NCBI GenBank assembly: GCA_964520325.1
Contig: CAZFOB010000002.1
Location: 58,723-122,722 of the forward strand
Length of the DNA stretch: 64,000 nt
Direction of reading: 5' to 3'
Source: an uncultured Actinomycetes bacterium
Lineage (GTDB): Bacteria; Actinomycetota; JAICYB01
Shown: positions 16,978 to 41,752 of the stretch, one piece after another
Layout of the letters: each line of letters starts with the position of its first letter
How positions within the stretch are numbered: position 1 is the stretch's first letter
Notes under the pieces: model-generated
Database searches by the model: none
Seen by the model: only the letters and a program-made list of their open reading frames with translations
Told to the model about the DNA's origin: nothing
Translations under genes and position numbers: made by a program

Positions 16978-17062
16978 GTCGGAGTGGCGGAACTTGGTAG
17001 ACGCGCATGGTTGAGGGCCATGTGGGAGCAATCCTGTGGGGGTTCAAATCCCCCCTCCGACA
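16978..17062 (+). tRNA. tRNA-Leu(GAG)
   Basis: Acceptor GTCGGAG/CTCCGAC; anticodon arm CATGG-TTGAGGG-CCATG; long variable arm; T-arm GGGGG-TTCAAAT-CCCCC; discriminator A. CCA not encoded. Confidence 0.96.
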
Positions 17063-18693
17063 CGCACAGTCACCCACCCCCTCGCCTCGGCTCGCACCAC
17101 GCGCCGGACGGGGTCGAATGTGAGGCTCAGGCCGAGCGACTCGTAGAGCTTTCGCTTCTCGTCGCGCTCGGCCGTCTGTAACGCCTCGCGGATGTCGGTC
17201 TGCAAGACCAACTCGCGCAGCTCTTTCCGTGTGAACTTGCGGTGCTCACGTGAATCGGCGACTACCTGCTCGGCAGCCATGCGCTTGCCCTGGACCTCGG
17301 CTATCCAGGTCGTGACGACCTTCGGGTCGGCACCGGCTTCGAGAGCCGCACGGTACTTCGCGAGCTGAGCATCACAGCTCGCAAGGGTTCGGCGAGCACC
17401 CTCCACGCGGGCATCCTGCGGAGGGTCGTGTCGCTGCGCCGCGTCTAGCGCGTCCAGCGTCTCGTCGATGTTTGCGGGGTCGAAGCACCGGAGCAGCCAG
17501 TCGTCGAGCCGCTCAACGATGACGGCCTCGCCGACGCTCACCGAGAGTGGGTGCTCGATTCCCTTGCGGATCGCGTACTGTTCGGGATAGCGGCAGCGGT
17601 ACAAGTGACGGGAACCGTTGCGCTGTGATCCCATCGTGCGGCTGCACACGTCGCAGCGGATGAACCCCCGGAGCAGATAAGTCTCCCGTGTAGCTCCCCG
17701 CTTGCCTGCGAGCGGGCGGTTACGGCCGGCGAGCATATGCGCCTGAGCACTTGCAAACAGCTCCGGCGAGACGATCTCCTCGTGCATGTTCTCCGCCGAC
17801 CAAATCCAGTCGGCCGGATCGTTCCACCGCATTCGCGAGTTGTGGCCGAGCGCGACGTTATCGACATCGACCAGCTCCTCGTGCCGACCCTGACGGTTCC
17901 ACACCTGCCGTCCTGTGTAGCGCGGGTTGCGCAGGATCGCGCGGACGGCGGACTTGGACCACGCGCCGCGGCTCGACTGCCGGTGACGGTTGCGCTCCGG
18001 GTCGTATCCGGACGGCGATGGGATGCCATCGCGCGTGAGCCCTTCGGCGATCGCGTAGAGGCCGGCGCCTTTCACGTACTCGTCGAAAATGCGCTCGACG
18101 ATTCTCGCCGCGACCGGGTCACGCGCGAGCTTGTGCAGACGCACGCCGGACGCGGCCTTGCTCGTGTTCGGGTGCGGCCCCGCGTCGGAGAGTCCGTACC
18201 CGTACGGCGGCCTACCGCCGAGAAAGCGACCCTCGGTGCGAGCCTGCGTGCTCATAGCTGTGCGGACGCGGATCTTGATGCGGTTGCGTTCGCCCTTCGA
18301 CATACCACCAAACAGGAGCATGACGAGGTCGTGAGCCTCCGAGCCTGGATCGACCCGGCCGCCGACCTCGGGCACCCACAGCTCGACGCCCCAGTGAGTG
18401 AACACCGGAAAGACGAGCGCGAACTCCGCGCCCGAGAACGCGCGAGCCGGCTCGCCGATCACGACTGCGTCGAAGCCGCGAGCTTGGTCCGGTAAGACGT
18501 CGAGCAACGCGGACGCCTCCGGACGCCGGCGCCACGGCAACGCGCGCGACTGGCCGACGTCGAAGAATTCCCGAACGACTTCGCCGCCGTGCGGTTCGAT
18601 GAGCTGCGTTGCGCGCGCGAGCTGCCACGCTCGCGACGACTGGGGGTCTTGTTGATCTTCGGTGCTCGTTCGTAGGTAGGCCGCGAATCTCAT
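17044..18693 (-). CDS. Large serine recombinase (integrase)
   Basis: AYLRTSTEDQ catalytic Ser motif, GGRPPYGY, ILRNPRYTG, zinc ribbon (CDVC...YRC), coiled coil. The 3' end overlaps the tRNA 3' end. Confidence 0.95.
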   Translation of the reverse strand: MRFAAYLRTSTEDQQDPQSSRAWQLARATQLIEPHGGEVVREFFDVGQSRALPWRRRPEASALLDVLPDQARGFDAVVIGEPARAFSGAEFALVFPVFTHWGVELWVPEVGGRVDPGSEAHDLVMLLFGGMSKGERNRIKIRVRTAMSTQARTEGRFLGGRPPYGYGLSDAGPHPNTSKAASGVRLHKLARDPVAARIVERIFDEYVKGAGLYAIAEGLTRDGIPSPSGYDPERNRHRQSSRGAWSKSAVRAILRNPRYTGRQVWNRQGRHEELVDVDNVALGHNSRMRWNDPADWIWSAENMHEEIVSPELFASAQAHMLAGRNRPLAGKRGATRETYLLRGFIRCDVCSRTMGSQRNGSRHLYRCRYPEQYAIRKGIEHPLSVSVGEAVIVERLDDWLLRCFDPANIDETLDALDAAQRHDPPQDARVEGARRTLASCDAQLAKYRAALEAGADPKVVTTWIAEVQGKRMAAEQVVADSREHRKFTRKELRELVLQTDIREALQTAERDEKRKLYESLGLSLTFDPVRRVVRAEARGWVTVRVGGGI

Positions 18694-19415
18694 CGTTTCC
18701 GTCTCCCTTGCTCTCTCAGCACTTTGCGTGCTTCGTCCGTGAGTCCCCCGCCGACCCGGCCCTGCGTGGGGCGCGTGAGCATCCCTTTGCGTCGCGCGCC
18801 TTCGACCCGGTCACGTGCTTGCGTATCGCTGAGTCCCCACGCTGCCGCGAGTGTCTTGATAGGCGTCTTAGACTTCCGCCGCGCCGCCACGTACGCCGCC
18901 GCGATCTCCGCGTAATGCCGAGGGGGCAGGGAGCCGGTAGCGTCGGGCTTGCTCTTGCGGATGCGGTATCCGAGGTGTTCGACCTCCTCAGAGAAGTCCG
19001 CCTCGAGAACGCCACGCAGCTGTTGAATGTCGCTCCCCGGCCGGAGCTGGCGCAACTGCCGAGCCGATAGTCCTCCCGCCGGCAGGTCGGCACCTTCTCG
19101 CAGTCCGATCACGATCGCCGCAACGACGATCTCGCCGTCCTGAGGCACGCACTCGTACTCGACCTCCCACGGCGAGCCCCAACTTCTTCGCCCTTCCTCC
19201 GCCGACTTCGGTGGCGGCGCCGGACGCACCCGCACGATTCCATCTGCGTCCTTGAAGCGCTTTCCGACCGGTGGCAGCAGCCTTCGGACAACGTTCAACG
19301 TCGTCCGACGCTTTGCGAGGGACCAAACGCGCCTGAGCACCGGACCGGGACCAGGCGAGTCGTCGAGGGCCGGCAGGCTCCAGCCCGGTCGTGGGGTTCC
19401 GATGCGCTGAGGCAT
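18690..19415 (-). CDS. Putative DNA-binding regulator translationally coupled to the LSR
   Basis: C-terminal HTH-like YAEIAAAY...TLAAAWGLSDTQARDRVEGARRKGML. Stop overlaps the LSR ATG. Start uncertain. Confidence 0.6.
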   Translation of the reverse strand: MPQRIGTPRPGWSLPALDDSPGPGPVLRRVWSLAKRRTTLNVVRRLLPPVGKRFKDADGIVRVRPAPPPKSAEEGRRSWGSPWEVEYECVPQDGEIVVAAIVIGLREGADLPAGGLSARQLRQLRPGSDIQQLRGVLEADFSEEVEHLGYRIRKSKPDATGSLPPRHYAEIAAAYVAARRKSKTPIKTLAAAWGLSDTQARDRVEGARRKGMLTRPTQGRVGGGLTDEARKVLREQGRRKR

Positions 19416-19519
19416 ACCAATAGCGTACCGGATCGAGTCAACGGTGCAGCGCGCTATTGAATCGGTGCACCGTCAGAGGGGGTTCCCCATGGTCCGATAC
19501 CGTGCCACGCTATCGACCT

Positions 19520-19768
19520 GTGACAACCATCACGCCCGATGAGCTTGTAAGGAAGGCGCGTGCCCGTCGCCGTCTGCCAGCGCCTCCCCTCCGCCGGGTC
19601 ATTCGCGAGCGCGCAGGAGTCAGTCGGCGAGAGGTCGCCGAAGCTCTCGGCGTGACGGTGCCTTCCGTCACGCGGTGGGAACTCGGGAGGCGCGAGCCGC
19701 GAGCAGACCTTGCCGAGCGGTACGCGGGTTTGCTCGACCGCTTGATCGACGTCGGCGCCGGACAATGA
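19520..19768 (+). CDS. XRE/Cro-like HTH protein
   Basis: RRVIRERAGVSRREVAEALGVTVPSVTRWELGRREP. Confidence 0.85.
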   Translation: MTTITPDELVRKARARRRLPAPPLRRVIRERAGVSRREVAEALGVTVPSVTRWELGRREPRADLAERYAGLLDRLIDVGAGQ

Positions 19769-19968
19769 GTCGCGCTGACGCTTCAAGTGGGCGGGACGCG
19801 GTCGAGGTCATCGTGCCCGCCGAACCTCCGCGCATCGAGGGTGCGAGCGCAGGCGCGTTGCTTCGCATCCTGCTCGCCGCCGCAGCGGATTCAGGCGACG
19901 AGTCATCGCCAAACGGCTGCGAGAGGAAGCCGCGTGGCGCGAAGGCGCGACACAGTACGTCCGCATGA
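19765..19968 (+). CDS. Small hypothetical protein
   Basis: ATGA overlap with the HTH gene; PAEPPRIEGASAGALLRILL segment. Confidence 0.5.
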   Translation: MSRADASSGRDAVEVIVPAEPPRIEGASAGALLRILLAAAADSGDESSPNGCERKPRGAKARHSTSA

Positions 19969-20005
19969 GGATGCGAGCGCCCGCGCCTTACGAAGCGAGG
20001 GTCGC

Positions 20006-20449
20006 ATGACTGGCGAAGTTCGCTGGGTGCCGAATCATCTGGTTCCCATCGAGGCCGAGCGCGAGGTTGTTTCCGGTGCGCTACGGGCGGCGATGGTCTT
20101 GCAGGAGCACCCCCAACATCGAGCAGCGCGCGCCGCCATGAACGTCATCACCGGAATCGACCCGGCGATCTTCGCCGACAAGAGCATCGGGATCATCGTG
20201 GCCGCGATCCAGACTGTCTATGTCGAGGCTGGCTCCGTCACGTTTTCGGCCGTTCTGGCCAAGCTTCACCACCGGCGCGAGCCCCAAGACGTGTTCCGTT
20301 GTCTCGACGCGACCTACGACTACGGGCTCGCGCCGATCGTCGGCATGGCGAAAACGGTCGAGCAAGTCCGCGCCGCCGCATCAGGTCGGAAGGCCTACAA
20401 CGACAGCCTCGACACGGCCGCGCGTATCTATCAGGGGGATACGCCGTGA
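20006..20449 (+). CDS. Hypothetical protein, weakly DnaB N-terminal-like
   Basis: PIEAEREVVSGAL resembles the DnaB-N start; couples to the next gene by GTGA overlap. Confidence 0.45.
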   Translation: MTGEVRWVPNHLVPIEAEREVVSGALRAAMVLQEHPQHRAARAAMNVITGIDPAIFADKSIGIIVAAIQTVYVEAGSVTFSAVLAKLHHRREPQDVFRCLDATYDYGLAPIVGMAKTVEQVRAAASGRKAYNDSLDTAARIYQGDTP

Positions 20450-21849
20450 GCCCGCTCATCGACCGCAACAATCATCTGATCGACACGCCCGACTCTGAAG
20501 GCGACGATCACGGTCGGCCGCCTCGCTTATACCCCCGCGCGACTGCTGCACAGCTGCACACCCCCCCACCGCTCGCTCGTGAGGAGGACATTCTTGGTCG
20601 CTTCGCTGACACGCTGACGCTGTGCGGCGTCGTTGGCGAAGACCGCAACGGCAAGGTGATGTTCCTCGCGTTGACAAGCCGGGTCCTGGACGAGCCGGTC
20701 TCGCTCGCTGTGAAAGGCGTGTCTAGTTCGGGGAAGTCGTACACCGTCGACACCACGTTGAGGTTCTTTCCGGAAGCGGCGTATATCCCCATGACCGCCA
20801 TGTCCGAGAAGGCGCTCATCTACATGAAGGAGGACTTCGCCCACCGGACTCTCGTGTTGTACGAGGCCGTGGCGCTCCGCGAGCAGCGAGAGAAGGTCGA
20901 GAGCAACCAGACCGCCTACTTCGTGCGGTCGCTGCTGAGTGAGGGTCGCATCTCCTATCCCGTCACGCAGAGGGACAAAGACGGGAACTTCGTGACGAGG
21001 ACCATCGTCAAGAACGGACCCACGAACCTCATCGTGACCACGACAGCAACGAGCCTGCACGGTGAAAACGAGACACGGCTGATATCGCTGCCGACCAACG
21101 ACAGCAACGATCAGACACGGGCGATCCTCGCGCAGCTGGCCGGGGTACGCACAGCCGGCGTCGACTTCACCGAGTGGCATCGGCTTCAGGAGTGGATCGA
21201 GACGGCCGAGCGTCGCGTCGTGATCCCTTATGCGCCCTACCTCGCCGAGAACGTTCCGCCGGTCGCTGTCCGTCTGCGCAGGGACTTTCGCTCGATTCTG
21301 CGCCTCATCGACACGCACGCCATCCTGCATCAGCTGAACCGGGACCGCGACGCGGACGGCCGGATCGTCGCCATCGAGGCCGATTACCTCGCGGTTCTCG
21401 GGCTCGTCGCCGACCTCATCGGCGACGGCGTCGGCGCGACCGTGCCGGACACGATGAGAGAAACCGTCGAGGCTGTCCGCGACCTGGGCGACGGAGCCGG
21501 CGCGACCGTGCTCAGCGTCGCAGAACGGTTGACGCTCGATCGGTCGGCCGCACAGCGACGACTGCGAGCCGCACGTGAGCGCGGCTATCTCGCGAACCAG
21601 GAAGAACGTCGAGGCCGGCCAGCGCGCTACGTGATTGGCGATCCGTTGCCGGACGAACTGATCCTGCTTCCGCACAGCTGCACACCCCCGGAGGATGAAC
21701 CCGCAGGTCAGGAGGGCGTGTGCACGTGTGCAGTCGATGCGGAGGGGAATGAGTGCTCCGAGGTCGCGAACACCTCGCCCGACCTGTTCACGTCCGGGAA
21801 CGGATCGACCGGCACCGTGGCGCACAAGTGCGAGCAAGGTGCGCCATGA
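20446..21849 (+). CDS. P-loop NTPase, putative replication helicase/primase-associated protein
   Basis: Walker A GVSSSGKS, LVLYE Walker B-like, ENETR, C-terminal winged-helix-like segment. Confidence 0.7.
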   Translation: MSPLIDRNNHLIDTPDSEGDDHGRPPRLYPRATAAQLHTPPPLAREEDILGRFADTLTLCGVVGEDRNGKVMFLALTSRVLDEPVSLAVKGVSSSGKSYTVDTTLRFFPEAAYIPMTAMSEKALIYMKEDFAHRTLVLYEAVALREQREKVESNQTAYFVRSLLSEGRISYPVTQRDKDGNFVTRTIVKNGPTNLIVTTTATSLHGENETRLISLPTNDSNDQTRAILAQLAGVRTAGVDFTEWHRLQEWIETAERRVVIPYAPYLAENVPPVAVRLRRDFRSILRLIDTHAILHQLNRDRDADGRIVAIEADYLAVLGLVADLIGDGVGATVPDTMRETVEAVRDLGDGAGATVLSVAERLTLDRSAAQRRLRAARERGYLANQEERRGRPARYVIGDPLPDELILLPHSCTPPEDEPAGQEGVCTCAVDAEGNECSEVANTSPDLFTSGNGSTGTVAHKCEQGAP

Positions 21850-22427
21850 GCATCCCCGCGATGATGTCGTCGGCATCGGTCGAATGGCCGACGCCACCCG
21901 ATCTGTTCGCCGCGCTCGACACCGAGTTCGCCTTCACGCTCGATCCGTGTGCGACCCGGGAGAACGCAAAGTGCTCCACGTATTACACGGCCACCGACGA
22001 CGGCCTAGCCCGGCCCTGGGCGCCACACCGCGTGTTCTGCAACCCGCCTTACGGCGCTAAAGCGACCGCGCGATGGGTTGAGAAAGGCTGGAACGAGGCG
22101 CAGCGCGGAGCCGTTGTCGTGCTCCTCATCCCGTCTCGTACGTGTACGAAGTGGTGGCATCGCTACGTTCAGCGAGCCGACGATCTCTGCTTCCTGCGGG
22201 GACGGCAGCGATTCGTCGGTGCCAGTGGCGCCGCTCCGTTCCCGTCGGCGGTAGTCGTCTTCCGCGGCCCTCGCAACGTTACGGCTCCGCCGGTGATTCG
22301 TAACGCCTGCGCCGAGTGCGGATGGCCCGTGTGGGGTCACCGCACCGACGCAATCTACTGCTCAGACGCACACCGGATGCGCGCGTATCGACGACGCCGG
22401 CAGAACGAACGAGGTCGCCGTGGGTAA
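21846..22427 (+). CDS. Phage-type DNA N6-adenine methyltransferase with C-terminal Zn-ribbon
   Basis: EWPTP, FTLDPCA, FCNPPY, LRGRQRF and APFPS, then CAEC...YCSDAH. Confidence 0.85.
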   Translation: MSIPAMMSSASVEWPTPPDLFAALDTEFAFTLDPCATRENAKCSTYYTATDDGLARPWAPHRVFCNPPYGAKATARWVEKGWNEAQRGAVVVLLIPSRTCTKWWHRYVQRADDLCFLRGRQRFVGASGAAPFPSAVVVFRGPRNVTAPPVIRNACAECGWPVWGHRTDAIYCSDAHRMRAYRRRRQNERGRRG

Positions 22428-22604
22428 GGTCGCCGCGCTCGGACAGGTGCCAGGCGACGACGAGATGCGCGGTCGCGCCGTCGATAGTCCGCGTCCGTCG
22501 AAACGATGCGCGCGCGAGGGTGGGCATGGTGCGTGTCGGACATCCGAGCGTTCCCACGCCCACGTCAAATGGGCCTGGCGCCCACGAGCAGCCGGAGGGT
22601 CGCA

Positions 22605-23156
22605 GTGAGTGCCGGCGAGTCCGGGCATGGTCGTGGCGCGAACTGGACACCGTCTCCTGCCTCTGGCGACCTGGCTCGGGGGTACTCATGGGAGGCGTTC
22701 ACGGACGGGAACGCTGCCGCGGTACGGCACGGAGCGTACTCGGAGCGCGCCGTAGATCCGCTTGCCCGGCTGGCACATGCCACGCTGAAGGAAGCTGCGC
22801 CGTGGATCACCGCGCCGGCCTTCTCGCACTCGCTGGCCGCGCTTTCGCGCGTAACCGCCCAAGTCACTCTGGTCGACCGCTATGTGACCGACGTCGGGCC
22901 GCTCGACGCAGATGGCAAGCCACGGGCAGCCGTCGAGCTACAGGTCCGGCTCGAACGTCTTGCCGCCGACCTGCGCTCACGACTCGGGCTCGACCCCTCG
23001 AGCTACGCCAAGATTCAGGCTGACCTCGCTGGCGCCGCCCGCGACGTCGGGCTCGAAGCTCTCCGCGCTGAAGGTGAGGCGATTCTTCGTGCCCGCGACC
23101 TGCGCCTAGAGGGGAGCGGACGTGATGCCGACGATTGTGCGAAGGAGCCTGAATGA
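22605..23156 (+). CDS. Terminase small subunit-like protein
   Basis: GGAGG then GTG; FTDGNAAAVRHGAYS and RLGLDPSS motifs; directly upstream of TerL. Confidence 0.55.
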   Translation: MSAGESGHGRGANWTPSPASGDLARGYSWEAFTDGNAAAVRHGAYSERAVDPLARLAHATLKEAAPWITAPAFSHSLAALSRVTAQVTLVDRYVTDVGPLDADGKPRAAVELQVRLERLAADLRSRLGLDPSSYAKIQADLAGAARDVGLEALRAEGEAILRARDLRLEGSGRDADDCAKEPE

Positions 23157-24638
23157 TGCGTCTAGGCGGCCTCGCTCGCTCCGTCCGGAAGCCGGCGCTC
23201 AGTCGTGCGCTCTCGATCCTGTTCGCTCTCGTGCTTGAGGACGGGCGTCGCTGGGAGACGCCGCTACGGGCTGGCAGGTCTCCGACGCGGAAGCCATCCT
23301 CGACCGTCGTCGCCGTCGCTTCTACCTGACACGACCCCGCGGCGGCTCCAAGACGACCGACCTCGCGGCCGTCGCGATCGTCATGCTCCTCGAACAGCTC
23401 CCCGAGAACAGTCGCTCATACGTCGTCGCCGTCGATCGTGATCAGGGCCGGCTATTCCGTGACGCCGTGCTCGGGTTCGTCGCACGGGACGCGTCCGGCG
23501 AGCTGGGACGTCTGCTCGCGGTCGACGCGTGGACGATTGCGAACGCGAGGAACGGTGCATCGGTGGAGATACTCGCCGCCGACGCAGCGGGCGCATGGGG
23601 CAAGCGGCCGCATCTGCTCATCGTCGACGAGTTCGCACAATGGCCGGCCACCCAACACACCAGCAGCTCTGGCGCGCGCTCTACTCCGCGCTCGGCAAGG
23701 TGTCGGACTCTCGGCTCGTCATCCTCACCACAGCCGGCGATCCCAGCTCTCACGCTTACAAGCTCCTAGAGCGTGCCCGGACGTCGCCGGAGTGGTTGGT
23801 CAACGAGGTCCCCGGCCCGGCACCGTGGATAGCGGCGTCCGATCTCGCCGAGGACCGTGCGGAGCTGCCGGCGTGGGAGTACGACCGTCTACACCGAAAC
23901 ATCTGGACGGCATCGGCCGACCGTCTCGTGCGTCCCGACGACCTGGCCCGCTGCGTTCGAGAGGTTGGCGACCTACCACCACGCCACGCGGTGCGATACG
24001 TCATCACCGTTGACGTTGGACTGGTTCATGACCGCACGGCCGTCGCGATCTGTCACGCTGAGCCGCAGCGACGGTCGAGCGCAATGCGACCCACGGAGTC
24101 GGCGGACGATGACCCGTACGGCTTCCGACGGTGGCAGCGATCGCAACGCGGTCCGGTCGACGACGCGCGCATCGTGCTCGACCGCTTGCAGGTGTGGGAG
24201 GGCACTCGTGACCGGCGCGTGTCGCTTGCCACTGTCGAGGACTGGATCGTCGGTGCGTCGCGCCTCTACAACGGCGCCGCCGTCTACTACGACCCGTTGC
24301 AGATGGAGCGGTTGGCCGAAAGTCTGCGCGACTTCGGTATCCGCACGCAGCGGGTGACGTTCAGCCTTCGCGAGAACTCGGAGCGAGCGATCCTTCTGCA
24401 CAAGCTCATCGCGGAAGCGCTGCTCTCGCTGCCGGACGACGTCGGACTCCTGGACGAGCTGGCGCACGTTCGCCTCGTCGAGTCATCGCCCGGCGTGTAC
24501 CGGCTCGACCATGACCGCAACCGCCACGACGATCGAGCCGTCGCGCTCGCAATGGCCGCTCAGGTGTTGGAGGGAGGAGGTCGGACGCGGGCAGGACCAC
24601 TGCAAATACAGGACCGCCGCCTAGCAGGGCGACGGTAA
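23153..24638 (+). pseudogene. Terminase large subunit, two frameshifts
   Basis: RPRGGSKT (Walker A), LLIVDEFA (Walker B), ILTTAG, VDVGLVHDRTAV and HDDRAVALA spread over three reading-frame segments; shifts at about 23255 and 23652. Confidence 0.8.
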
Positions 24639-24654
24639 GACGAGAGGAGGCAAC

Positions 24655-24855
24655 GTGTCGTGGACCGATGAAAAACTCGTCGCGAGTTCGCTAGGCCCGT
24701 CGTCAGCAGACACCGAGTGGGTCCTCGCGATTCACGCGCTGGGCGCGACGGCCGTACCGAACACCGCCGAGCGCTCCAAGCTCGTATGGCTCCGAGCGCG
24801 AAGCATTTCTGACCGACTGACGGCCGTCATCGACGCCGTACTCGCACGGAGTTAG
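24655..24855 (+). CDS. Hypothetical protein
   Basis: GAGGAGG RBS then GTG; lies in the element operon. Confidence 0.5.
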   Translation: MSWTDEKLVASSLGPSSADTEWVLAIHALGATAVPNTAERSKLVWLRARSISDRLTAVIDAVLARS

Positions 24856-24864
24856 GAGGAGACG

Positions 24865-25179
24865 ATGGAGCTTCGAGAATGGTTCCAGTCGCAGGAGCAT
24901 CCGCTCACAGACGGTGAGCAGGAAGCGATACGCGACCCGGAGAACATGACGGCCGAGACGCGAGGACGTCTGCGCGCACGCGGTGGGCTCGATCAGGTGC
25001 AGCGCGTAGCGACGGACCGCGCGATTGCACGGAGCGAGGCCGCGACCCCCGGCAAGAGCCCGACGCGAGCTGAGCTAGCCGATCGGAAGGACGCTTTCGA
25101 GCGCGGGCGGGAGCGGGCAAGGACCCACGCACCGCGGCGCTCATACGAGTTCGGCCCACGCGGAGGCGACGCAGCATGA
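24865..25179 (+). CDS. Hypothetical protein
   Basis: AGGAG RBS then ATG; ends GGDAA overlapping the next ATG, a phage-like operon pattern. Confidence 0.55.
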   Translation: MELREWFQSQEHPLTDGEQEAIRDPENMTAETRGRLRARGGLDQVQRVATDRAIARSEAATPGKSPTRAELADRKDAFERGRERARTHAPRRSYEFGPRGGDAA

Positions 25180-32925: not shown

Positions 32926-32934
32926 TGTGCAAAC

Positions 32935-33054: not shown

Positions 33055-33124
33055 GGCGGAGCTGTCCAGATGTACGCGTGTCTCAGGGGTTAGCGTGGTG
33101 TATATACACCACCAGACGCGCGGA

Positions 33125-33751: not shown

Positions 33752-33846
33752 GGTCTCGTCCCGACGCCGAGGCTATCTCACCTCCCAATTCCGCTCCCCC
33801 GGGTGGTGTTGTGGACATTCCATCTTTCCGACAGTACGATTCTCGA

Positions 33847-34152
33847 ATGACTCGAATGACTCTACGGGCGAAGGGACAATTAACGCTTCCCGAAGAGATC
33901 CGAGAGGCTGCCCGCCTCGAAGAGGGCGACCTGCTGGACGCCGAGCTCACGGAAGAGGGCATCCTGCTGCGCCCCCAGAAGATCATCGACGCCACGCAGG
34001 CCTGGTATTGGACGCCCGCGTGGCAGGCGGGCGAGCGGGAGGCGGAAGCAGACCTCGCAGCTGGCCGAGTAGAGACCTTCGCGTCCGGTGAAGATCTCAT
34101 CGCGGGGTTGAAGAGACGCTCGAAGCGCGCAGGACGACCACGGTCGCGTTAG
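33847..34152 (+). CDS. AbrB/MazE-family antitoxin
   Basis: LRAKGQLTLPEEIREAARLEEGD and QAWYWTPAWQAGEREAEAD. Confidence 0.85.
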   Translation: MTRMTLRAKGQLTLPEEIREAARLEEGDLLDAELTEEGILLRPQKIIDATQAWYWTPAWQAGEREAEADLAAGRVETFASGEDLIAGLKRRSKRAGRPRSR

Positions 34153-34159
34153 CTGCCGA

Positions 34160-34450
34160 TTGCCCACCTTCGAATGGCTGGCTCGGTTCGGTTCCGACTT
34201 CGATGCGCTGACTCGCGCGCAGCAGGCAGCCTTCCTCCTTGCTGTTGAGCAGTTCGTCGACGACCTCAGGACGGGTCAGTTCCGGAAAGGTCTTCGCGTC
34301 AAGGGAGTCAAGGGCGCCAAGGGCGTCTTTGAGATGACATGGGCCGACGACGGCCGGGCGACGTTCCAGTACGGAGATCCGTTGTCCGAGGGCGAACCGC
34401 ACGTCATCTGGCGACGGATCGGGACGCACGCCATCTTCCGCGAACCCTGA
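34160..34450 (+). CDS. RelE/ParE-superfamily-like toxin
   Basis: LRVKGVKG..VFEMTWADDGRATF..IWRRIGTH; directly downstream of the antitoxin. Confidence 0.7.
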   Translation: MPTFEWLARFGSDFDALTRAQQAAFLLAVEQFVDDLRTGQFRKGLRVKGVKGAKGVFEMTWADDGRATFQYGDPLSEGEPHVIWRRIGTHAIFREP

Positions 34451-34509
34451 GTCGGCCGTCAGAGATCCGAATCAAGCAGTCATCGAACGACCGAGGACTT
34501 GCGCAAGCG

Positions 34510-35546
34510 TCAGGACGATCGGTATGCAGCGACGATCGGGACAAGTTCGATCGGTGAGGCCCCGTGCAGGATGACGGCATCGGCGCCGAGGTCGAGTTGT
34601 CCGCGGATCGCTCTTGCACACTGCTCGGGGGATCCCGTTGCGGCCGGCGCGAGCCATTCGTTCGGGAGCAGGTCTGCGATGTGCTGGAGCTGTTCGGTCG
34701 TCGCGACTTGATCGATCGCTCCACGCATACTCGTCACGACCTCGTCGGCACGGAACCGTTGGAGCGGCGCGGGGTTCCAGCGGTTGGTCTCCACCATCAG
34801 GTCGCCATAGCCCTGCAGGTACGTCGCCATACGCCCAACGGTCTTCTTGAGACGCACATCCTCGGGGAGGTGGTCGCCGACAGTCGCGAAACACGACCAC
34901 ACCGTGACGTCAGCGGGGTCACGACCGGCGCGCTCCGCGGCGTCCTTCACGGTCTTGACGCATCGCTGCAAGGTCTCGTCCGTAAAGAAGGTGTGCAGCA
35001 CGACGGTGTCGAACATCCGTCCTGCGAGGTCAAGCGTGCGCGGACCGAATGCGGTGATCGCGAGTGGTATGTCCTCGTCGAATGATGCGTCGAGGTGGAG
35101 GATCGGGAAGCGGCCGATCGGACCGTCGTGGCCGATCACGACTTCGCCCTTCCAGAGACGACGCATCAACAGGGCGAAGTCCTCGAGTTGGGCTGTCGTG
35201 ATCTGCGGTATCCCGAACGCATCGAACATCGGCTTGATCCCTCGACCCAAACCGAGCGTGAACCGTCCGTTCGTGAGCCGGTGCATCGTGGTCGCGTATG
35301 ACGCGGTCACCATTGGGTGCCGGTGTTGTGGTTCGTTGCTGCCGTCGCGATCTGGATCCTTGTCGAAACGGCGCCCGCGGCGCCGGACAAGGTGGCTGCT
35401 TCCTTGATGTTGAAGCGCTCGGAGATGAAGGCCGTCCCGAGGCCCAGTTCCTCAGCGCTACGGACTTCTTCGATGATGTCGCGCGGTGACTTCGGCGCAC
35501 CGGCGAGCAGGTAGCAACCCAGCTCCTCGGAGACCTGGTCGGACAT
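34510..35546 (-). pseudogene. F420-dependent LLM-class oxidoreductase, frameshifted
   Basis: ISERFNIKEA..ATNHNT then RHPMVTASYATTMH in another frame; one base missing near 35322. Confidence 0.8.
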
Positions 35547-35706
35547 CGCGACAGTTTGGCAGAAACGACCTACTGCATCGGGGCGTGAGCACCAAGAACG
35601 TTGCGGCGCCGTATGGAGCCGCTGGCCTATCGCTTGCGGCACGGTAGCGGTACGGGTTGACCTCAGGCACCGAGGCCCCCTACTTTCGTAATGGTCGCGT
35701 AATAGC

Positions 35707-37494
35707 TTGAGCCTTCTCACCCGACAGGACACTCCCGTGCATCTCTACGCCTCAAGGTTCCTCGCCGCTCTCGATCCCGTCCCGATCGACGGGCCGCGCG
35801 GCAGCGCCTTGGCCGACTGGTGGCCGCTCTACATCTTCGCGGGCGTCTTCGTCGCCATCCTCGTCGGCGCGTTCGTCGCCGGACGGAGCCGAGGCAGCGG
35901 CCTCATGAGGATCCCCGCCGGCCTGCAACACGTCAGCGGAGTTCCCGATTGGGCGGCGACGACGTTGCTCTTCAGCATCTACGGACTCGCGGTCGCCGGG
36001 TTCGGCTTCTACAACGACGTCGAGTGGCACGTCGGACTCGGCCGCGACGACGACCTGTTCACTTCCCCGCACACCGCGATCCTGGTCGGCCTCGTGATGA
36101 TCGCGTGCGCGCCGCTCGCCGGAGAGATCGTCGCATCGATCCGTAAGCGGCCCGGCGGACTTCGCGTCGGCCCGTTGCGGTTCCCGTGGTCGACCGTGCC
36201 GCTCCTCGCACTCGGCACGGCGGCGCTGATTGGGTTCCCGATCGACGAGCTCTGGCACCGACGTTTCGGTGTGGACGTGACGATGTGGAGTCCGCCGCAC
36301 CTGATCATGATCTTGGCCGCGTCTTTCTCCGGACTCGCATCGTGGCTGGTGCTCGCGGAGGCGGGCGTCCGTCCTGCCGGCCGATGGGGACGTGGATTGC
36401 ACGTCGTAGCGGGCGCACTCACGCTCCAAGGGCTCTCGAGCCTCCAGGGAGAGTTCAGTTTCGGCGTCCCGCAATGGCAACAGCTCTACCACCCCGTCCT
36501 GATCTGCCTCGCCGCCGGATTCGCGCTCGTCGCGATCCGCATCGTCCACGGACCGTGGTGGGCCTTCGGGGTCGCAACGGGGATCCTCGTGGTCCAACTA
36601 CTGGACACGCTCGACGAGGGTGGCCCGGTGCAGACGCGCCCCGGCGCCGTATACGTCGGATCCGCGATCGTGGTCGAACTCGTGGCGCGCGTGCTCGGCA
36701 CCGATCGCCGTCTCCGATTCGCACTCGCGTCGGGACTCGGTGTCCTCGCCGTCGGATTGCCCGTCGAATGGGCGTGGAACCAGGGCGCTCACCAGCCCTG
36801 GACGGCCGCGCTCTTTCCCGATGCCGTGCTCGTCGGCGGACTTGCAGCGCTGGGAGGAGCCGTGCTCGGCGCGGCCGCCGCCGGCGCCATCTCGGACGCA
36901 CTCACAACCCGCCGCGATCGACGCGCCGTCCCGGTCGCGGCCGTGTTGCTCGCTCTTCTCGGCGTGGGCGTCGCGCTCGGACTACCGAACCCGCGGCGCG
37001 TTGGCGACGTCCGGGCAGACGTACACCTCGAATGGACGGACGATGAGCACGCGCGTGTCCACGCGACGCTCGACCCACCGGACGCTGCGGTCGGCGCACG
37101 TTGGTTCACCGCGGGCAGCTGGCAATGGGGCGGCCGGACCATCGCGCACATGCAGCGCACGGGCAACGGCACCTACGTCGCGGACGAACCTCTGCTCATG
37201 ACCGGACGGGCCAAGAGTCTCCTCCGGCTGCATCGTGGCGCCGAGATGATGGCGATCGCGATCCGGCTGCCGGCAGATCCGAAGTACGACCTCGCAGAAG
37301 TGCCGGCGGAAGACCGCCGTTCCCGCTTCGTGGCCGAGCAGCGTTTCCTGCAGCGCGAAGCCGACCGTCCCGTCGGCTGGTTCGCGATCCTCGTCTATGC
37401 GTTGGCCGTCGGTCTCGCTCTGGCGTGGATCGTGTCGTTCGCCGTGGCGTGCAACCGTGTCCGACAACGGACGCCTGCGTCAGCACCCGCCTAA
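35707..37494 (+). CDS. Multi-pass membrane protein
   Basis: 595-aa ORF with many TM segments and repeated DxxWH...PH motifs (DVEWH/SPH, DELWH/SPPH). Confidence 0.8.
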   Translation: MSLLTRQDTPVHLYASRFLAALDPVPIDGPRGSALADWWPLYIFAGVFVAILVGAFVAGRSRGSGLMRIPAGLQHVSGVPDWAATTLLFSIYGLAVAGFGFYNDVEWHVGLGRDDDLFTSPHTAILVGLVMIACAPLAGEIVASIRKRPGGLRVGPLRFPWSTVPLLALGTAALIGFPIDELWHRRFGVDVTMWSPPHLIMILAASFSGLASWLVLAEAGVRPAGRWGRGLHVVAGALTLQGLSSLQGEFSFGVPQWQQLYHPVLICLAAGFALVAIRIVHGPWWAFGVATGILVVQLLDTLDEGGPVQTRPGAVYVGSAIVVELVARVLGTDRRLRFALASGLGVLAVGLPVEWAWNQGAHQPWTAALFPDAVLVGGLAALGGAVLGAAAAGAISDALTTRRDRRAVPVAAVLLALLGVGVALGLPNPRRVGDVRADVHLEWTDDEHARVHATLDPPDAAVGARWFTAGSWQWGGRTIAHMQRTGNGTYVADEPLLMTGRAKSLLRLHRGAEMMAIAIRLPADPKYDLAEVPAEDRRSRFVAEQRFLQREADRPVGWFAILVYALAVGLALAWIVSFAVACNRVRQRTPASAPA

Positions 37495-37511: not shown

Positions 37512-37800
37512 CTAATGGTCGTCCAGCGCGAGCTCGCCATGGAGGGCCAGCGCTGTACTCAGGGGTCTATACGCCCCTCCGACACAAACCTTTAGCCACC
37601 GAGATGGTGCGGCCTCGCGGCGAGCGGGCTTGTAGGTCAAGCGGAGTCCGAGATCCTCGTAGAAGCGCTTTTGGACGACGCGTTCCGGTGAGGCAAGTCC
37701 ATCGCGAACGTTCAAGTCGCTTAGGAACTCGCGGAACTCATCGGCGTTGAGATCGGCCGGCGACGGTTCCGAGCGCAGCGGTTGAAGGCCTGCGAGAAGA
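37512..37800 (-). pseudogene. LSR C-terminal remnant reading through an att core
   Basis: DEFREFLSDLNVRDGLAS..QKRFYEDLGLRLTYKP..WLKVCVGG. Confidence 0.75.
37574..37585 (+). repeat. att core copy 7
   Basis: CCCCTCCGACAC, exact. Confidence 0.85.
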
Positions 37801-37870: not shown

Positions 37871-38167
37871 TTAGAGATCGTCCTCGCGGAGTACGTCGAG
37901 GTTCCGGAACTTCAGGTCACCTTCGCTGATCTCGGAGAGGAAGGCGGCGAACTCGCCTGTCTCGGGGCGGCTCGAGTTCTCCATGCCCTGTTCGTAGGAT
38001 CCGAACTCCACCAGGAGCAGGTACACGCTCTCGGCGTCACGGTCGCGGCGAAGAACAGCGCGGTGAGGGATGCGATGTCCTTCGGAGTTGCGTATCCACG
38101 CATTGAGCTTGCTGTTGAACTCGTCGATCCGACTCGTTGTGAACTCGATGATCTGTGTGAACTTCAT
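37871..38167 (-). CDS. Dimeric alpha/beta-barrel (ABM-like) protein
   Basis: FTQIIEF...VEFGSYEQGMENSSRPET...FRNLDV. Confidence 0.65.
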   Translation of the reverse strand: MKFTQIIEFTTSRIDEFNSKLNAWIRNSEGHRIPHRAVLRRDRDAESVYLLLVEFGSYEQGMENSSRPETGEFAAFLSEISEGDLKFRNLDVLREDDL

Positions 38168-38174
38168 CGTCTGC

Positions 38175-39221
38175 TCACGCCTTGGCTTCGAGGACGATGT
38201 TGAACGGCGTCTCGGCCACGCGCTTCAGCGTCGTGAAGCCGGCGCTGGTGACGATCTCGCGGAGGCGAGCCTCGCCGGCCTGGGCGCCCAGTGCCGCTCC
38301 GACCTCTTGGGACAACGAACTGGGCGTGCACAGGAGCGTCGAATAGCCGTAGTAGGCGGCGCCGACCGGGTTGAGGTTGTCGGCCAGGTCGTCGTTGGCG
38401 AACGGCTCGATGAGCATGAGCGTCCCGCCGGGGGCGAGGTGGTCCAGAACATGTGCGCACGCACCGGCCGGGTCACCCATGTCGTGCAGGCAATCGAAAA
38501 AGCACACGAGGTCATAGGTCCCGGAGAACGTCGTGGCCGCGGCCACATCAAAGCGCACTCGGTCGGCGAGTCCGGCGTCGGCGGCGCGCTTGCGAGCGGC
38601 GTCGACGGAACCCTCGTGCGCGTCAAAGCCGACGACAGTGGACTCGGGGTAGGCCTCAGCGAACAGCAGGGTCGACGCGCCATGGCCACAACCGACGTCG
38701 GCGATCCGGGCCCCGGCGGTGAGCTTGGCCTCGACGCCGTCGAGCGCGGGTATCCATGCGCTGGCCAGGTGATTGAGGTAGCCAGGCCGGAAGAACCGCT
38801 CGCAACCGCCGAGGACGTGTTGGTCGTGAGCCCCCCACGCGAACCCGTCACCGGTCCGGAACCGCTCGGCGATCGTGTCGGTGGCGTAGACGGCTCCAAC
38901 TGCGGTCTCGAACGCGCCGATGACGCACGCCGGGCTGGTCTCGTCGGTGAGTGGTACCGCATGTTCGTCGGGCAACGAGAAACGGCCGTCGCCGTCGTAG
39001 GACACATACCCTCGCGCCGCCTGCGCGCTCAACCACTCACGCACGTAGCGCTCGGCGGTGCCGGTTCGGTCCGCCAGCTCCGCCGGGGTGAGCGATCCGG
39101 CACCGGCCATGGACCGGTAGAGACCGAGCTTGTCGCCGATCACGACCATCGCACCGCCGAGCACTGCGCCGACATCACCGACGGCCCTGCCCACGAACTC
39201 CATCATCTTGGTCTCGTCCAT
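38175..39221 (-). CDS. Class I SAM methyltransferase with N-terminal wHTH (Rv2258c-like)
   Basis: GDKLGLY, ERYVREWL, ADVGCGHG, FDCLHDMGDP and LGAQAGE motifs. Confidence 0.92.
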   Translation of the reverse strand: MDETKMMEFVGRAVGDVGAVLGGAMVVIGDKLGLYRSMAGAGSLTPAELADRTGTAERYVREWLSAQAARGYVSYDGDGRFSLPDEHAVPLTDETSPACVIGAFETAVGAVYATDTIAERFRTGDGFAWGAHDQHVLGGCERFFRPGYLNHLASAWIPALDGVEAKLTAGARIADVGCGHGASTLLFAEAYPESTVVGFDAHEGSVDAARKRAADAGLADRVRFDVAAATTFSGTYDLVCFFDCLHDMGDPAGACAHVLDHLAPGGTLMLIEPFANDDLADNLNPVGAAYYGYSTLLCTPSSLSQEVGAALGAQAGEARLREIVTSAGFTTLKRVAETPFNIVLEAKA

Positions 39222-39236
39222 AGCCAATTCCTTTCC

Positions 39237-39509
39237 TTAAGCGCCCTGGGGCGACGGGGTACGCGGGATGCGGTGTCGGGTGGCCGACAGAACGCCGAAG
39301 TTGGACACAAACAGTGGCGTCAGGTACGTCAGCGCCACCTTGAGCCAGACGATCGCGTCGGCTCGTCCCGCGACGATGGGGCTGAGCTGATTCATCGCGA
39401 AGAACGTCGAGCCGACTATTAACGCGATCGACACCGTTCGCTTCAGGTGTTGCGGCGAAGCAACGACTGAGACCGCTTCACGCCACGTGGACCACGTCGG
39501 TTCGCTCAT
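39237..39509 (-). CDS. NrtS-like small membrane protein
   Basis: ALIVGSTFFAMNQ...KVALTYLTPLFVSNFG. Confidence 0.7.
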   Translation of the reverse strand: MSEPTWSTWREAVSVVASPQHLKRTVSIALIVGSTFFAMNQLSPIVAGRADAIVWLKVALTYLTPLFVSNFGVLSATRHRIPRTPSPQGA

Positions 39510-39564
39510 GCGACGAACGTACCGCTCCCCAGCCGGCGCTACCTCCGTATAGGTACGGGACTTT

Positions 39565-40620
39565 TCACGAAATTCCGAGCTCGGCGGCGCGCCGAATCAA
39601 TTCGGTCTTGGCACTGACGCCGAGCTTGGCGTAGATGCTCACCAAATGCGACTCCACGGTGCGCTTGCTCATGACCAGCTGATCGGCGATCGCCTGCGCG
39701 GTCGCACCGCGTGAAGCCAGCACCGCCACCTCGCGTTCGCGCTGGCTCAACGCGTCGGCGCCGACACTCGTCCGCCTTCGCGGCCGGCTCTTCTGGCCGG
39801 TCAGGAAGACCTCGATCTCATCAGCGATCGCGTCGACATCGCCGAGCCATGCGCGGTGCTCCGATCCGGGCAGCTCCACGTAGGTCGCGTTCGGAATGTG
39901 CTGCGCCATGTAGCGCGAGTGGCCGACGTCGATCCACGTGTCGCCGGCCCGATGCAGGATCAGCGTGGGTGAGGTGATCCGCGGCAAGACGTCGCGTATG
40001 TCCAGCCGCATGTTCATGCGGATCACGTTCTGGGCCATAGCGGGACTGGCGGCCATGCGCAGATAGCGAGCCCACCATTCGCGGTGCCGCTCGTCGTCGA
40101 ACGCATTCGACTGCCCACCGTCCCACCACTCGCCCGAGGCCCAGGCCCGCTCCATCCCGTCGACAACCTCTTCGAGCTGTTCCTCCGTGGGACCGTAGGG
40201 GTAGTCCGGCCCGACGAGCTGGCGGGACCACGAGCCGTAGAGCACCACGGCTTGCGTCCGCTCCGGATGCGCCTCGCCGAACAGCAGGCTTAGTGTGCCG
40301 CCCTCTGAGATGCCGAGGATCGCCGCCCGTGTCGAGCCGGCCGCGTCCATCACCGCGCCGATGTCGTCCATTCGTTCATCGATCGATGGCGGGCTCGGGA
40401 CGGGATCCGACATGCCGGTGCCGCGCTTGTCAAACACGATCAGGCGCGAGAACGACGCCAGCCTGGTGAGGAACCGTGCCAACCGCGGCTCCTCCCATGC
40501 CACCTCGACGTGAGAGACGAAACCGGGGACGAGCACGAGATCCATGTCGCCCTCGCCGATCACCTGATAGGCGACGTTGACCGGACCACTCCTGGCGTAC
40601 CTCGTGTCTGGCCGCAGCAT
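39565..40620 (-). CDS. Alpha/beta hydrolase-LuxR HTH fusion regulator
   Basis: FDKRGTGMSD and GISEGG; C-terminal LSQREREVA..KRTVESHLVSIYAKLG. Confidence 0.9.
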   Translation of the reverse strand: MLRPDTRYARSGPVNVAYQVIGEGDMDLVLVPGFVSHVEVAWEEPRLARFLTRLASFSRLIVFDKRGTGMSDPVPSPPSIDERMDDIGAVMDAAGSTRAAILGISEGGTLSLLFGEAHPERTQAVVLYGSWSRQLVGPDYPYGPTEEQLEEVVDGMERAWASGEWWDGGQSNAFDDERHREWWARYLRMAASPAMAQNVIRMNMRLDIRDVLPRITSPTLILHRAGDTWIDVGHSRYMAQHIPNATYVELPGSEHRAWLGDVDAIADEIEVFLTGQKSRPRRRTSVGADALSQREREVAVLASRGATAQAIADQLVMSKRTVESHLVSIYAKLGVSAKTELIRRAAELGIS

Positions 40621-40623
40621 GCT

Positions 40624-40790
40624 CTACACGCCGTCCACGGCGACCATCCGCCATATGCCCGCGCCTTCACGAATTGCGCACGCGGGGCGGTAGTCCTCCG
40701 AGGCGTACCAGTCGCGGGCTGCTTGCGCCGACTCGAACTCGATCACGTGACGCTGTGGCTCCCAATCGCCCTCTAGAATGCTGATGGGTC
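40624..40790 (-). pseudogene. DUF1330-family C-terminal fragment
   Basis: ILEGDWEPQRHVIEFESAQAARDWYASEDY; N-terminus replaced by att-flank DNA. Confidence 0.7.
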
Positions 40791-40851
40791 CCCCATGGAA
40801 GCGGTTGGACCTCGGCAGTCGTGACGAAGCCCTTCGAGCTGTACCTCTGAG

Positions 40852-40921
40852 CAGCACGAACCAAACTACACAGCACGAGCCACCACGCCGCCAGCACGAG
40901 TTCAAGTCCCCCTCCGGCACC
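40852..40921 (+). repeat. att copy 8: T-loop to 3' end of tRNA-Leu-like sequence with CAGCACGA arm-like repeats
   Basis: CAGCACGA at 40852, 40871 and 40892, then TTCAAGTCCCCCTCCGGCACC. Confidence 0.75.
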
Positions 40922-40963
40922 CAGTTGAACCCCCTCAGTGTCAGCGACGCTCGTGAACACCGA

Positions 40964-41026
40964 TCAGACGCTGATGACTTCGACCAAGTCCTGGATCGCC
41001 CGGAAGTCGTCGGCGTTCCGTGTGTA
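40964..41026 (-). pseudogene. 3' end of vapC duplicated from 32265-32327
   Basis: Near-identical DNA encoding YTRNADDFRAIQDLVEVISV*. Confidence 0.85.
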
Positions 41027-41740
41027 TTGCGCGGCAGAGTCGTCTACGGTTGCACGATGCGCGAAACACCCCAACCCTGTAGCGGCTCTTCGTTGTGAGG
41101 TGTTTCGAGGTCCCTATCATCATCCTCGCGCCGGTGGCGATCCCACCAGTCCGACCAGGACAAACTCGTCGACTCAGCCTCAGCATCAATCCACGGCGCG
41201 GTGCGGCCACTCCAGCTATGAAGCCCATACGACGGAGATAGCTCTCTTCCGTAGGACGCATGAGGCGACGCCCCTCAGGGCAAAGAAGCTGTTGCCTCCT
41301 CACCCGCGGCGGTCGCTGGCCGACTTTCGTATCGATCCTGTGGGAACGCAGGCAATGTCCTCCAGATCCGGGGAACATCGCATGATCGACCTTCCCATGG
41401 CCTTTCGACGTAGTTCGGCAAACGCTCGTCGTCGCTTGGAGGGGCCGGGTCCTCGACAATATCGATGAGCCTCAGTCGCAAACCCGCGTCTATCAAGGCA
41501 TAGAGAAGTCTGTGCATGATTCAACTCGAGCCTGGTGGCCCGTTCGCTCCCTGCGGACACGACACCACGGCAGTTGGCGAACTCGCAAATCGCCGGGCAA
41601 CTCGATTGACGAGGCAGAGCGCGCATCGGAAGTGCGCTCACGCAAGCATGTTTCCCGAACAGGTCAGCGGGCCAATGATCCGAGATCGAATCGTCGAGCT
41701 CCGCCGCGTTCCGGCCGGAGCTCTCCGACCTACCAGCGCT

Positions 41741-41752
41741 CCCCTCCGACAC
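41741..41752 (+). repeat. att core copy 9, probable right island boundary
   Basis: CCCCTCCGACAC, exact; intact genes resume at 41766. Confidence 0.8.

Follow-up and report, generated by a model that had tools for sequence, protein, structure and literature searches.

How did nine copies of the 3′ end of one tRNA come to lie in the same orientation behind a single tRNA gene? The question is raised by a 64,000-nucleotide (nt) stretch of DNA, hereafter the window, from the metagenome-assembled genome (MAG) of an uncultured permafrost Actinomycetes bacterium, in which copies of the tRNA-Leu(GAG) 3′ end, here termed cores, divide the DNA between 17053 and 41752 into modules next to a gene for a large serine recombinase (LSR). 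We conclude that the array was probably built by repeated site-specific integration of LSR elements at a tRNA gene that was regenerated each time, followed by internal deletion.

The tRNA-Leu(GAG) gene (16978-17063, + strand) is the only tRNA that ARAGORN finds in the window, and its final 11 bases, CCCTCCGACAC, occur there in six exact copies, all on the + strand, namely core 1 (17053-17063), which is the tRNA 3′ end itself, core 2 (28692-28702), core 3 (30405-30415), core 4 (31288-31298), core 7 (37575-37585), and core 9 (41742-41752), which lies 14 nt before a DinB/MDMPI gene (41766-42557, +). A scan allowing one mismatch returns 12 matches where 2.88 are expected and adds core 5 (32214-32224, +) and core 8 (40910-40920, +); a further one-mismatch site at 31929 is probably due to chance. 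Core 6 (33046-33056, +) has diverged (profile E 0.0046), and about 350 bp of its left flank share 81% identity with the sequence flanking core 3. When the window is searched with a profile made from the nine sites, they are the only ones recovered (E 2.8e-05 to 0.053); the next match is on the opposite strand and has an E of 0.55. Nine cores in one orientation, five of them exact copies beyond the tRNA's own, at an expectation of roughly 0.1 per window, had been proposed in a preliminary description; the sites and their orientation stand, and the computed expectation for the exact 11-mer is 0.06, with none of 100 shuffles reaching the six observed. The motif is not equally common across the genome, where both strands of 3,502,349 bases hold seven exact copies and six of the seven form the array. 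The seventh (C4:105991, −) lies in ordinary sequence with no tRNA close by and was rejected as a true core, its surroundings being chance-like. Among nine relatives at the family level, each genome has 3-9 exact 11-mers, the tRNA copy counted in; all 19 of the non-tRNA sites fetched from them lack a T-arm-like left flank and were likewise set aside as chance-like, and a background without tRNA-like flanks cannot explain the cluster in the window. As had also been suggested, the cores fall at the boundaries of cargo genes, being placed between credible genes or at most 11 nt from the ends of open reading frames (ORFs).

The physical order of the array is largely supported by an independent assembly of the probable source run (Logan contigs), which is colinear with the window, shows no differences from it, has an even depth of 25-28, and spans cores 2, 3, 4, 6, 7, 8, and 9, that is, seven of the eight junction cores. 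These contigs break only at 32291/32298 and 40990/40997, both within a 118-bp repeat (32213-32327 and 40909-41026, 91% identical) whose copies start exactly at cores 5 and 8, so that the order of the 8.7-kb segment 32298-40990 comes from the MAG assembler only. An alternative joining at this repeat, giving an 8.7-kb circle plus a deletion, is compatible with the contigs. The host MAG has an estimated contamination of 4.9%. The four sequencing runs were compared as assembled contigs, and low cover of parts of the window in runs X3-X5 was not read as absence; most apparent joints in the run contigs (sides of 21-28 letters, 85% likeness) were read as noise or paralogues, and none was used.

The recombinase that connects these cores to a mechanism is encoded directly at the tRNA. 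An intact LSR of 549 amino acids (aa) (17044-18693, −; Pfam Resolvase, Recombinase, and Zn_ribbon_recom) has its stop codon within the tRNA 3′ end and aligns over its full length with homologues, S10 and R8 lying in invariant or near-invariant columns. Its sequence matches no solved structure, shares no more than 27% identity with the LSRs of phage records, and resembles CcrB only distantly (30 bits against a cut-off of 900). When public genomes were scanned, 48 loci encoding relatives of this LSR were identified, of which the 35 with a near-full-length match were examined; their hosts include Actinoplanes, Krasilnikovia, Pseudonocardiaceae, Kribbellaceae, Mycobacteriales, Acidimicrobiia, and others. 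At 26 of the 35 loci, a complete tRNA-Leu(gag) gene lies no more than about 220 nt past the LSR stop codon on the opposite strand. Another six have only a partial tRNA 3′ end at the LSR, which places the element second in a tandem, while one is at a contig edge and two are unclear. When viral contigs were queried with the single LSR, no match was obtained, and a query with the LSR alignment returned five loci on predicted proviral contigs. The tRNA-Leu(GAG) gene of the window is predicted to act as attL, with a chromosomal left arm and an element-supplied 3′ end. The preliminary description had put forward LSR-associated serial integration at an attB that is regenerated each time, and this gains support from the 26 loci and from three further LSR traces in the array.

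Those three traces lie inside module 1 and behind two of the cores. A profile of 17 LSR-family sequences detects two C-terminal remnants, one of about 65 codons immediately behind core 2 (~28731-28928, −; E 1.7e-08, profile positions 476-540) and one of about 50 codons immediately behind core 7 (~37614-37766, −; E 6.4e-04, positions 485-536), which bears out the earlier observation that two cores are followed by LSR 3′ remnants. Plain tblastn with the resident LSR finds only one remnant, the two 3′ remnants requiring the family profile. This one is an internal fragment of a second LSR within module 1 (25198-25896, −; Pfam Recombinase; family profile E 7.5e-64), which corresponds to residues ~176-338 and is 65% identical to the intact LSR over residues 176-332. 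No core lies beside it, so module 1 (17064-28691, 11.6 kb) would represent a fusion of two elements. The module also encodes a helix-turn-helix (HTH) protein (18690-19415, −), a Dam methylase (21753-22427, +), a terminase large-subunit fragment (23529-24638, +), and several ORFs of unknown identity; from its Pfam and PHROGs matches (phrog_9, phrog_11473) we read it as two fused, degraded phage-like LSR elements. Pfam, PHROGs, and NCBIfam recognise no replication gene in module 1, where five ORFs have no match of any kind, and no conjugation genes were recognised in the array.

Serine integrases cut at a central dinucleotide between two half-sites, and the arms around the cores point to where this would occur. 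On one viral contig (L209), GTGTGGATAA and its complement form a perfect inverted repeat of 10 bp around a 26-nt spacer that holds the core. At another locus (L210), a 7.8-kb LSR element lies between cores, with pairing between its two arms at 10 of 12 positions. In module 1, 11 of 13 positions pair between the right arm of core 1 and the left arm of core 2, which are separated by a 29-nt spacer; the left arm of core 2 contains GGGTGGGTTAC, whose inverted partner, GTCACCCACCC, lies to the right of core 1. The midpoint of all three LSR arm pairs is in the C-run that directly precedes CTC(C/G)G(G)ACAC (CTCCGACAC). From this geometry, we infer that crossover takes place about 9 nt from the tRNA 3′ end, in the C-run, and that the element supplies those 9 bases. 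Every element would have had to rebuild a working tRNA, and the core would accordingly be conserved for that reason rather than by a need of the enzyme for homology. In an in-register comparison of arms and a version with a 12-nt window, the module 1 pair matches at 10 of 12 positions, which 5% of shuffles equal, and no other notable pair appears. A further arm-pairing test, which has low power, compared 21 modules with 420 mismatched pairs; only the two LSR-bearing elements pair better, and the arms of the 19 small or recombinase-less modules pair no better than the mismatched controls.

Aligned on their C-runs, the cores are conserved to the right of it and vary freely in their left arms. 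Cores 2 and 5 have left arms of LSR type, those of cores 3, 4, 6, and 8 nearly repeat the tRNA T-arm for about 20-25 nt, and core 7 has a third type. Core 5 is followed by AGTTGAACC, which directly follows the tRNA itself in three relatives (G001, G005, and G009) and therefore makes this core attR-like, and core 8, with a tRNA-like left arm and AGTTGAACC on its right flank, looks like a pseudo-attB.

In the mechanism that we propose, the attB of this LSR family would be the 3′ end of tRNA-Leu(GAG), and the carriers would be phage-like or integrative elements of Actinomycetota. An incoming element would recombine within the C-run 5′ of CTCCGACAC and bring its own last 9 bases, whereby the tRNA would be rebuilt and the earlier junction shifted downstream as a core. 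Repetition of this process would have stacked at least four LSR elements, probably together with islands of another integrase type, and internal deletions would then have stripped most recombinase and element genes. What remains would be short, core-bounded modules composed of toxin-antitoxin pairs, which resist loss, lone accessory genes, and fragments. The order of events in this scheme is deduced, as is a joint excision in which cores 1 and 5 (or 8) would serve as attL and attR. Decay itself is visible in an orphan Phd antitoxin, a PIN toxin reduced to 28 codons, a monooxygenase with a frameshift, and the terminase fragment. The locus combines an intact target, repeats on one strand, a target-linked integrase adjacent to attL, and traces of integrases further inside.

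Comparison with other genomes and with soil metagenomes bears on whether the cores are true boundaries. In genome G003, the distance from the tRNA to the orthologue of window 50864-52000 is 3 kb, against 34 kb here, which means that the variable region runs past the last core and through the repeat-free 41.8-50.8 kb. The core-free segment 41753-50860 carries DinB/MDMPI and sulfotransferase genes, is apparently missing between the tRNA and the right-flank gene in G003, and may have joined the island earlier and become fixed. Additional cores are present behind the tRNA in G008, G009, G006, and G005. In G008, 3.46 kb separate the tRNA from a core and are taken up by a single gene for a 1103-aa cyclase-ATPase-TPR protein; beyond this core the order is a monooxygenase, a core-like site, and a DinB gene; core 9 of the window is homologous to the core-like site ahead of this DinB orthologue. 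The unpublished genome G005 has an empty site on one contig (C52) and, on another (C396), a 1.4-kb insert with one 439-aa ORF and only 10 nt and 68 nt around it; the flanks are 91-96% identical, homology resumes 13 nt before the second core, and the two contigs form, as aligned, a clean occupied-versus-empty pair. The single-gene inserts at tRNA-Leu in G008 (locus L005, 2333-5644) and G005 (locus L085) both encode a class III adenylate/guanylate cyclase domain, assigned from Pfam in G008 and from motif reading alone in G005. Contigs from soil run X3 carry 302 and 208 unmatched letters before their similarity to the window sets in at 30406 and 31285, at cores 3 and 4; in this run, modules 3 and 4 occur at 92-96% identity with different left neighbours. 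Presence/absence breakpoints at cores, seen in another genus (G005) and in short soil contigs, and the much shorter tRNA-to-flank distances in relatives are in line with serial integration.

A pattern scan of metagenomes gave at least 80 loci, of which 22 were kept by eye, having a C-run with a T-arm-like left flank and a CCCCCAC-type right flank, and 58 were dropped as chance. Contig L121 (10,968 nt) contains 6-7 same-strand cores in 11 kb, spaced 160-3,900 nt apart, among DUF1254/DUF1214 proteins, a transporter, a ribbon-helix-helix (RHH) protein, and a gene fragment; among the matches listed, it is the densest array outside the window. Two cores each are present in L090, L142, L152, and L155, and the family profile places LSR remnants immediately behind cores in L152, L090, and L155, as well as after the tRNA in G002 (locus L009). 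The repeat around a ~1-kb module in L090 (4059, 5065) consists of the core plus about 30 nt to its right, and that around a ~0.7-kb module in L152 (1009, 1686) of about 25 nt to the left plus the core, which implies that some elements copy far more than 11 nt. No relative turned up among metagenome contigs queried with the conserved left-flank protein.

The modules behind module 1 are small and rich in toxin-antitoxin genes, which were assigned mainly by Pfam. Module 2 encodes a zf-CDGSH protein (29550-29819, +) and, at the 5′ end of an ORF at 29667-30290 (−), recognised by Pfam and in translation, the orphan Phd antitoxin copy, whose PIN partner is lost and which has 81% DNA identity to 32702-33054. 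Module 3 contains an RHH antitoxin and a PIN toxin (30469-31205, +; FitA-like_RHH/HicB, with PIN positions 74-119), the toxin being broken and represented by just its C-terminal part inside an ORF. A single short-chain dehydrogenase gene (31314-32081, −; adh_short, E 1.8e-45) occupies module 4, with gaps of 15 nt to core 4 and 132 nt to core 5, and a PIN toxin with its Phd antitoxin (32265-32925, −) occupies module 5. The cargo of module 7 (37871-40920, −) includes a 98-aa ORF, a 90-aa ORF, an HTH-methyltransferase (38175-39227, −), an alpha/beta-hydrolase-LuxR protein (39565-40620, −), and a DUF1330 protein (40624-40920, −). Module 8 retains the last ~28 codons of a PIN toxin (40949-41031, −), 91-94% identical to 32250-32332, and no credible gene in its remainder. 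One PIN-Phd unit therefore occurs three times, complete in module 5, as antitoxin only in module 2, and as toxin tail only in module 8, with homology that begins or ends at cores. Modules 3, 4, 5, 6, and 8 have cores at both sides and no recombinase match, as in cis-mobilisable elements (CIMEs).

Module 6 (33125-37494, genes on both strands) encodes a PNPOx-like protein (33125-33751, −), a MazE-like antitoxin (33811-34152, +) with a 96-aa partner (34160-34450, +), a luciferase-like monooxygenase (34510-35554, −), and a 595-aa conserved hypothetical protein (35707-37494, +). The reading frame of the monooxygenase is interrupted, as residues 4-82 of its G008 orthologue match one frame and residues 75-341 another, and the gene is either a frameshifted pseudogene or the product of an assembly error. 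The 595-aa protein has no match in Pfam, PHROGs, or NCBIfam, and 482 homologues at E ≤ 0.001 among 8000 candidates scored; the named ones are hypothetical proteins of Acidimicrobiales or Actinomycetota MAGs, with two paralogues on one contig, and judged by these homologues it is a conserved lineage family. Near-identical pieces in soil runs had led us to regard the monooxygenase and the 595-aa protein as mobile cargo. This claim is withdrawn, since the 595-aa family is broad in the lineage and the 78% DNA identity of the monooxygenase to G008 is within the range of flanking core genes, and nothing is claimed about their mobility.

Upstream of the tRNA there is a second integrase gene, which points away from both the tRNA and the array. 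It encodes a tyrosine integrase of 382 aa (15688-16836, −), and its stop codon is 6 nt from a neighbouring conserved gene; no tRNA repeat was found to its left. The 140-nt spacer before the tRNA (16837-16977) contains direct and inverted copies of GGGTCAC. Orthologues occupy the same position in G004, where the gene is intact, and in G001, where it is frameshifted, and a query with the integrase found no orthologue at the locus in the other seven relatives, including no match upstream of the tRNA in G005, G008, and G009 and no tblastn match in the G006 locus. G005 has a paralogue (34% identical) on another contig beside tRNA-Ala, and in relatives paralogues adjoin tRNA-Arg and tRNA-Asn in the classical arrangement.

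Several observations weigh against stacking and decay of LSR elements as the full account of the array. An LSR trace or an LSR-type arm pair is found at only three of the eight junctions, and at least three types of left arm occur among the cores, so more than one integrase family was probably involved; the four T-arm near-copy arms suggest a second, perhaps tyrosine, integrase family. AGTTGAACC is present twice inside the array, at cores 5 and 8, and in L152 to the left of an LSR element, and such internal copies are not predicted by integration at the tRNA alone. Random deletion is no obvious route to the tight single-gene modules, such as the G005 insert and module 4. Furthermore, neither a tRNA nor a recombinase trace was found on contig L121, and the relatives compared with the window are related at the family level only.

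An alternative is a cassette system, in which the small modules would be independent units. Recombinase-less modules would then be captured, excised, and reshuffled at the cores by a recombinase acting in trans, either the resident LSR or the upstream tyrosine integrase, which would make the array a functional analogue of an integron. The tight single-gene or toxin-antitoxin modules 3, 4, and 5 fit this picture, as do the 3.46-kb single gene of G008 and its 1.08-kb monooxygenase between two core-like sites, the 1.4-kb gene of G005 that is cleanly present or absent, a 1-kb Gp49-family toxin-antitoxin module in L090, the many cores of L121 without a recombinase, the three copies or remnants of the PIN-Phd unit bounded exactly by cores, the changed left neighbours of modules 3 and 4 in run X3, and an integrase at the head of the array that points away from it. 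However, the eight junctions, folded as 91-nt DNA, form attC-like structures no better than shuffles (z −1.27 to +1.81, with 22 to 193 of 200 shuffles folding at least as well), the tyrosine integrase scores 18.7 bits against a cut-off of 265 with the integron-integrase model TIGR02249 and, used as a query, has no match upstream of the tRNA in the module-bearing G005, G008, and G009, and the cargo orientation is mixed (+ in module 3, − in modules 4, 5, and 7, both in module 6). The arms of the 19 small or recombinase-less modules pair no better than mismatched controls, and LSR remnants mark at least two modules as decayed full elements. By the established rules of LSR recombination, no recombination is expected between junctions that consist of two element-side arms. 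We consider such a system unlikely, and equally doubtful is its wider form, a tRNA-Leu(GAG) "cassette bank" in soil and permafrost Actinomycetota, in which recombinase-less modules of a single gene or toxin-antitoxin pair, each with a core at its end, would be inserted, excised, and exchanged between genomes via a serine recombinase that passing elements supply in trans. The label "integron-like" used in the preliminary description is not supported, given the cores that fold no better than shuffles, the non-IntI integrase, the mixed orientation, and the unpaired arms.

The left arms raise a different possibility, that tyrosine-integrase islands targeting tRNA-Leu built most of the array and LSR elements are just some of its occupants. 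Identity blocks such as the T-arm near-copies of ~20-25 nt at cores 3, 4, 6, and 8 and at most cores of L121 are typical of tyrosine-integrase attP sites, and the paralogues beside tRNA-Arg and tRNA-Asn show that relatives of the upstream integrase lie at tRNA genes. Yet tblastn with this integrase detects no gene or remnant in the array (best E 1.2) and none in the modules of relatives, and all core-adjacent recombinase traces that were found are LSRs; we regard this origin as quite improbable. That the array reflects chance, a dispersed repeat family, or an assembly artefact is barely credible. The contamination of the MAG and the two contig breaks inside the 118-bp repeat leave some room for an artefact, against which stand six exact cores where 0.06 are expected, the concentration of six of seven genomic copies in the array, the single strand of all nine cores, the difference-free bridging of seven of eight junctions at a depth of 25-28, and the recurrence of the pattern in other genomes and contigs. 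Repeated LSR integration at the regenerated tRNA with subsequent decay remains the probable explanation.

Composite islands of the staphylococcal cassette chromosome (SCC) arise by Ccr-LSR insertion at the 3′ end of one conserved protein-coding gene. In SCC and in the CIMEs of streptococci, arrays of elements are split by site repeats, and recombinase-less members are thought to move with or by their neighbours. The window shares with these systems an LSR-type array, site repeats between elements, and members without a recombinase, and it differs from SCC in its tRNA target, its recombinase clade, and its host phylum. With integrons, it shares short modules between site repeats, richness in toxin-antitoxin genes, and a head integrase that points away, whereas attC folding and an IntI integrase are lacking, orientation is mixed, the anchor is a tRNA, and the recombinase traces are of the serine type.

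The closest precedent appears to be the ssrA islands of Dehalococcoides, in whose description SCC and CIMEs are also mentioned (McMurdie et al. 2011, PMC3146451). In the parts of this source that concern their structure, a serine recombinase of ~540 aa is encoded on the reverse strand beside attL, several islands stand in tandem and are delimited by direct copies of the RNA gene 3′ end, islands without an integration module are read as cis-mobilisable and added by accretion, the insertion point is in the T-loop/3′ region, and a repeat-free variable region extends past the last repeat (PMC3146451). Each of these features, from the reverse-strand LSR at attL, the tandem 3′-end repeats, and the integrase-less islands to the T-loop/3′ insertion and the repeat-free variable region, has its counterpart in the window, and by analogy the same accretion picture would apply. 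The window differs in having a tRNA rather than a tmRNA as target, in its phylum, in the length of the repeat (11 nt against 20 nt), in its much smaller modules (0.8-4.5 kb), and in an LSR with only a distant resemblance to CcrB; no DsiA-like small recombinase or conserved six-gene integration module of the kind described in those parts of the paper was seen (PMC3146451). Related modules recur within the array, whereas the ssrA paper, as far as these parts go, reports no duplicate islands per strain (PMC3146451).

Two other systems share the target or the mode of growth. Sections of Ghinet et al. 2011 (PMC3218068) on actinomycete integrative and conjugative elements (AICEs) describe eight serine recombinases of Mycobacterium AICEs that integrate into one tRNA-Leu gene, as well as integration of other AICEs at tRNA genes in two-element tandems. 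Like the window, these are actinobacterial and involve a serine recombinase targeting tRNA-Leu; unlike AICEs as portrayed there, the window has no recognised conjugation or replication genes, a phage-like module 1 with its terminase fragment, and eight junctions instead of two-element tandems (PMC3218068). In the tycheposon islands of Prochlorococcus, each new integration at a given tRNA displaces earlier elements outward, partial tRNAs lie between the elements, and fragmented integrases with scattered partial tRNAs are read as marks of older events (Hackl et al. 2020 preprint, 10.1101/2020.12.28.424599). Tandem accretion at one tRNA with partial tRNAs between elements is common to both, but tycheposons, according to the preprint, have cyanobacterial hosts, carry tyrosine recombinases in 910 of 937 cases, and possess replication modules (primase, helicase, or polymerase), none of which was recognised here (10.1101/2020.12.28.424599). 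The preliminary description knew of no such form in actinobacteria. This is too broad, as tRNA-Leu serine recombinases and tandem AICEs have been reported in the sections cited (PMC3218068), and it stands with respect to density, our literature search having found no description of so dense an array in Actinomycetota. The array is hence an unusually dense, fine-grained, toxin-antitoxin-rich case of tandem island accretion, a kind of build-up already known elsewhere.

The analysis defines a serine-integrase family with a predictable and highly conserved target, the 3′ end of tRNA-Leu(GAG), across several orders of Actinomycetota, and with a putative crossover point. The link between this LSR family and tRNA-Leu is useful for the annotation of islands in MAGs, and the LSR may, once tested, serve as an integration tool for actinomycetes that are hard to engineer. 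The analysis also offers a simple reason for an 11-nt "identity block" in an LSR system, in that the element must rebuild the acceptor end of the tRNA. Dense stacks of tiny, toxin-antitoxin-rich modules behind tRNA-Leu(GAG) recur in uncultured soil lineages. If the modules were independently mobile, the finding would be much weightier, and if the cassette system were real, it would amount to integron-like gene capture built on serine rather than tyrosine recombination.

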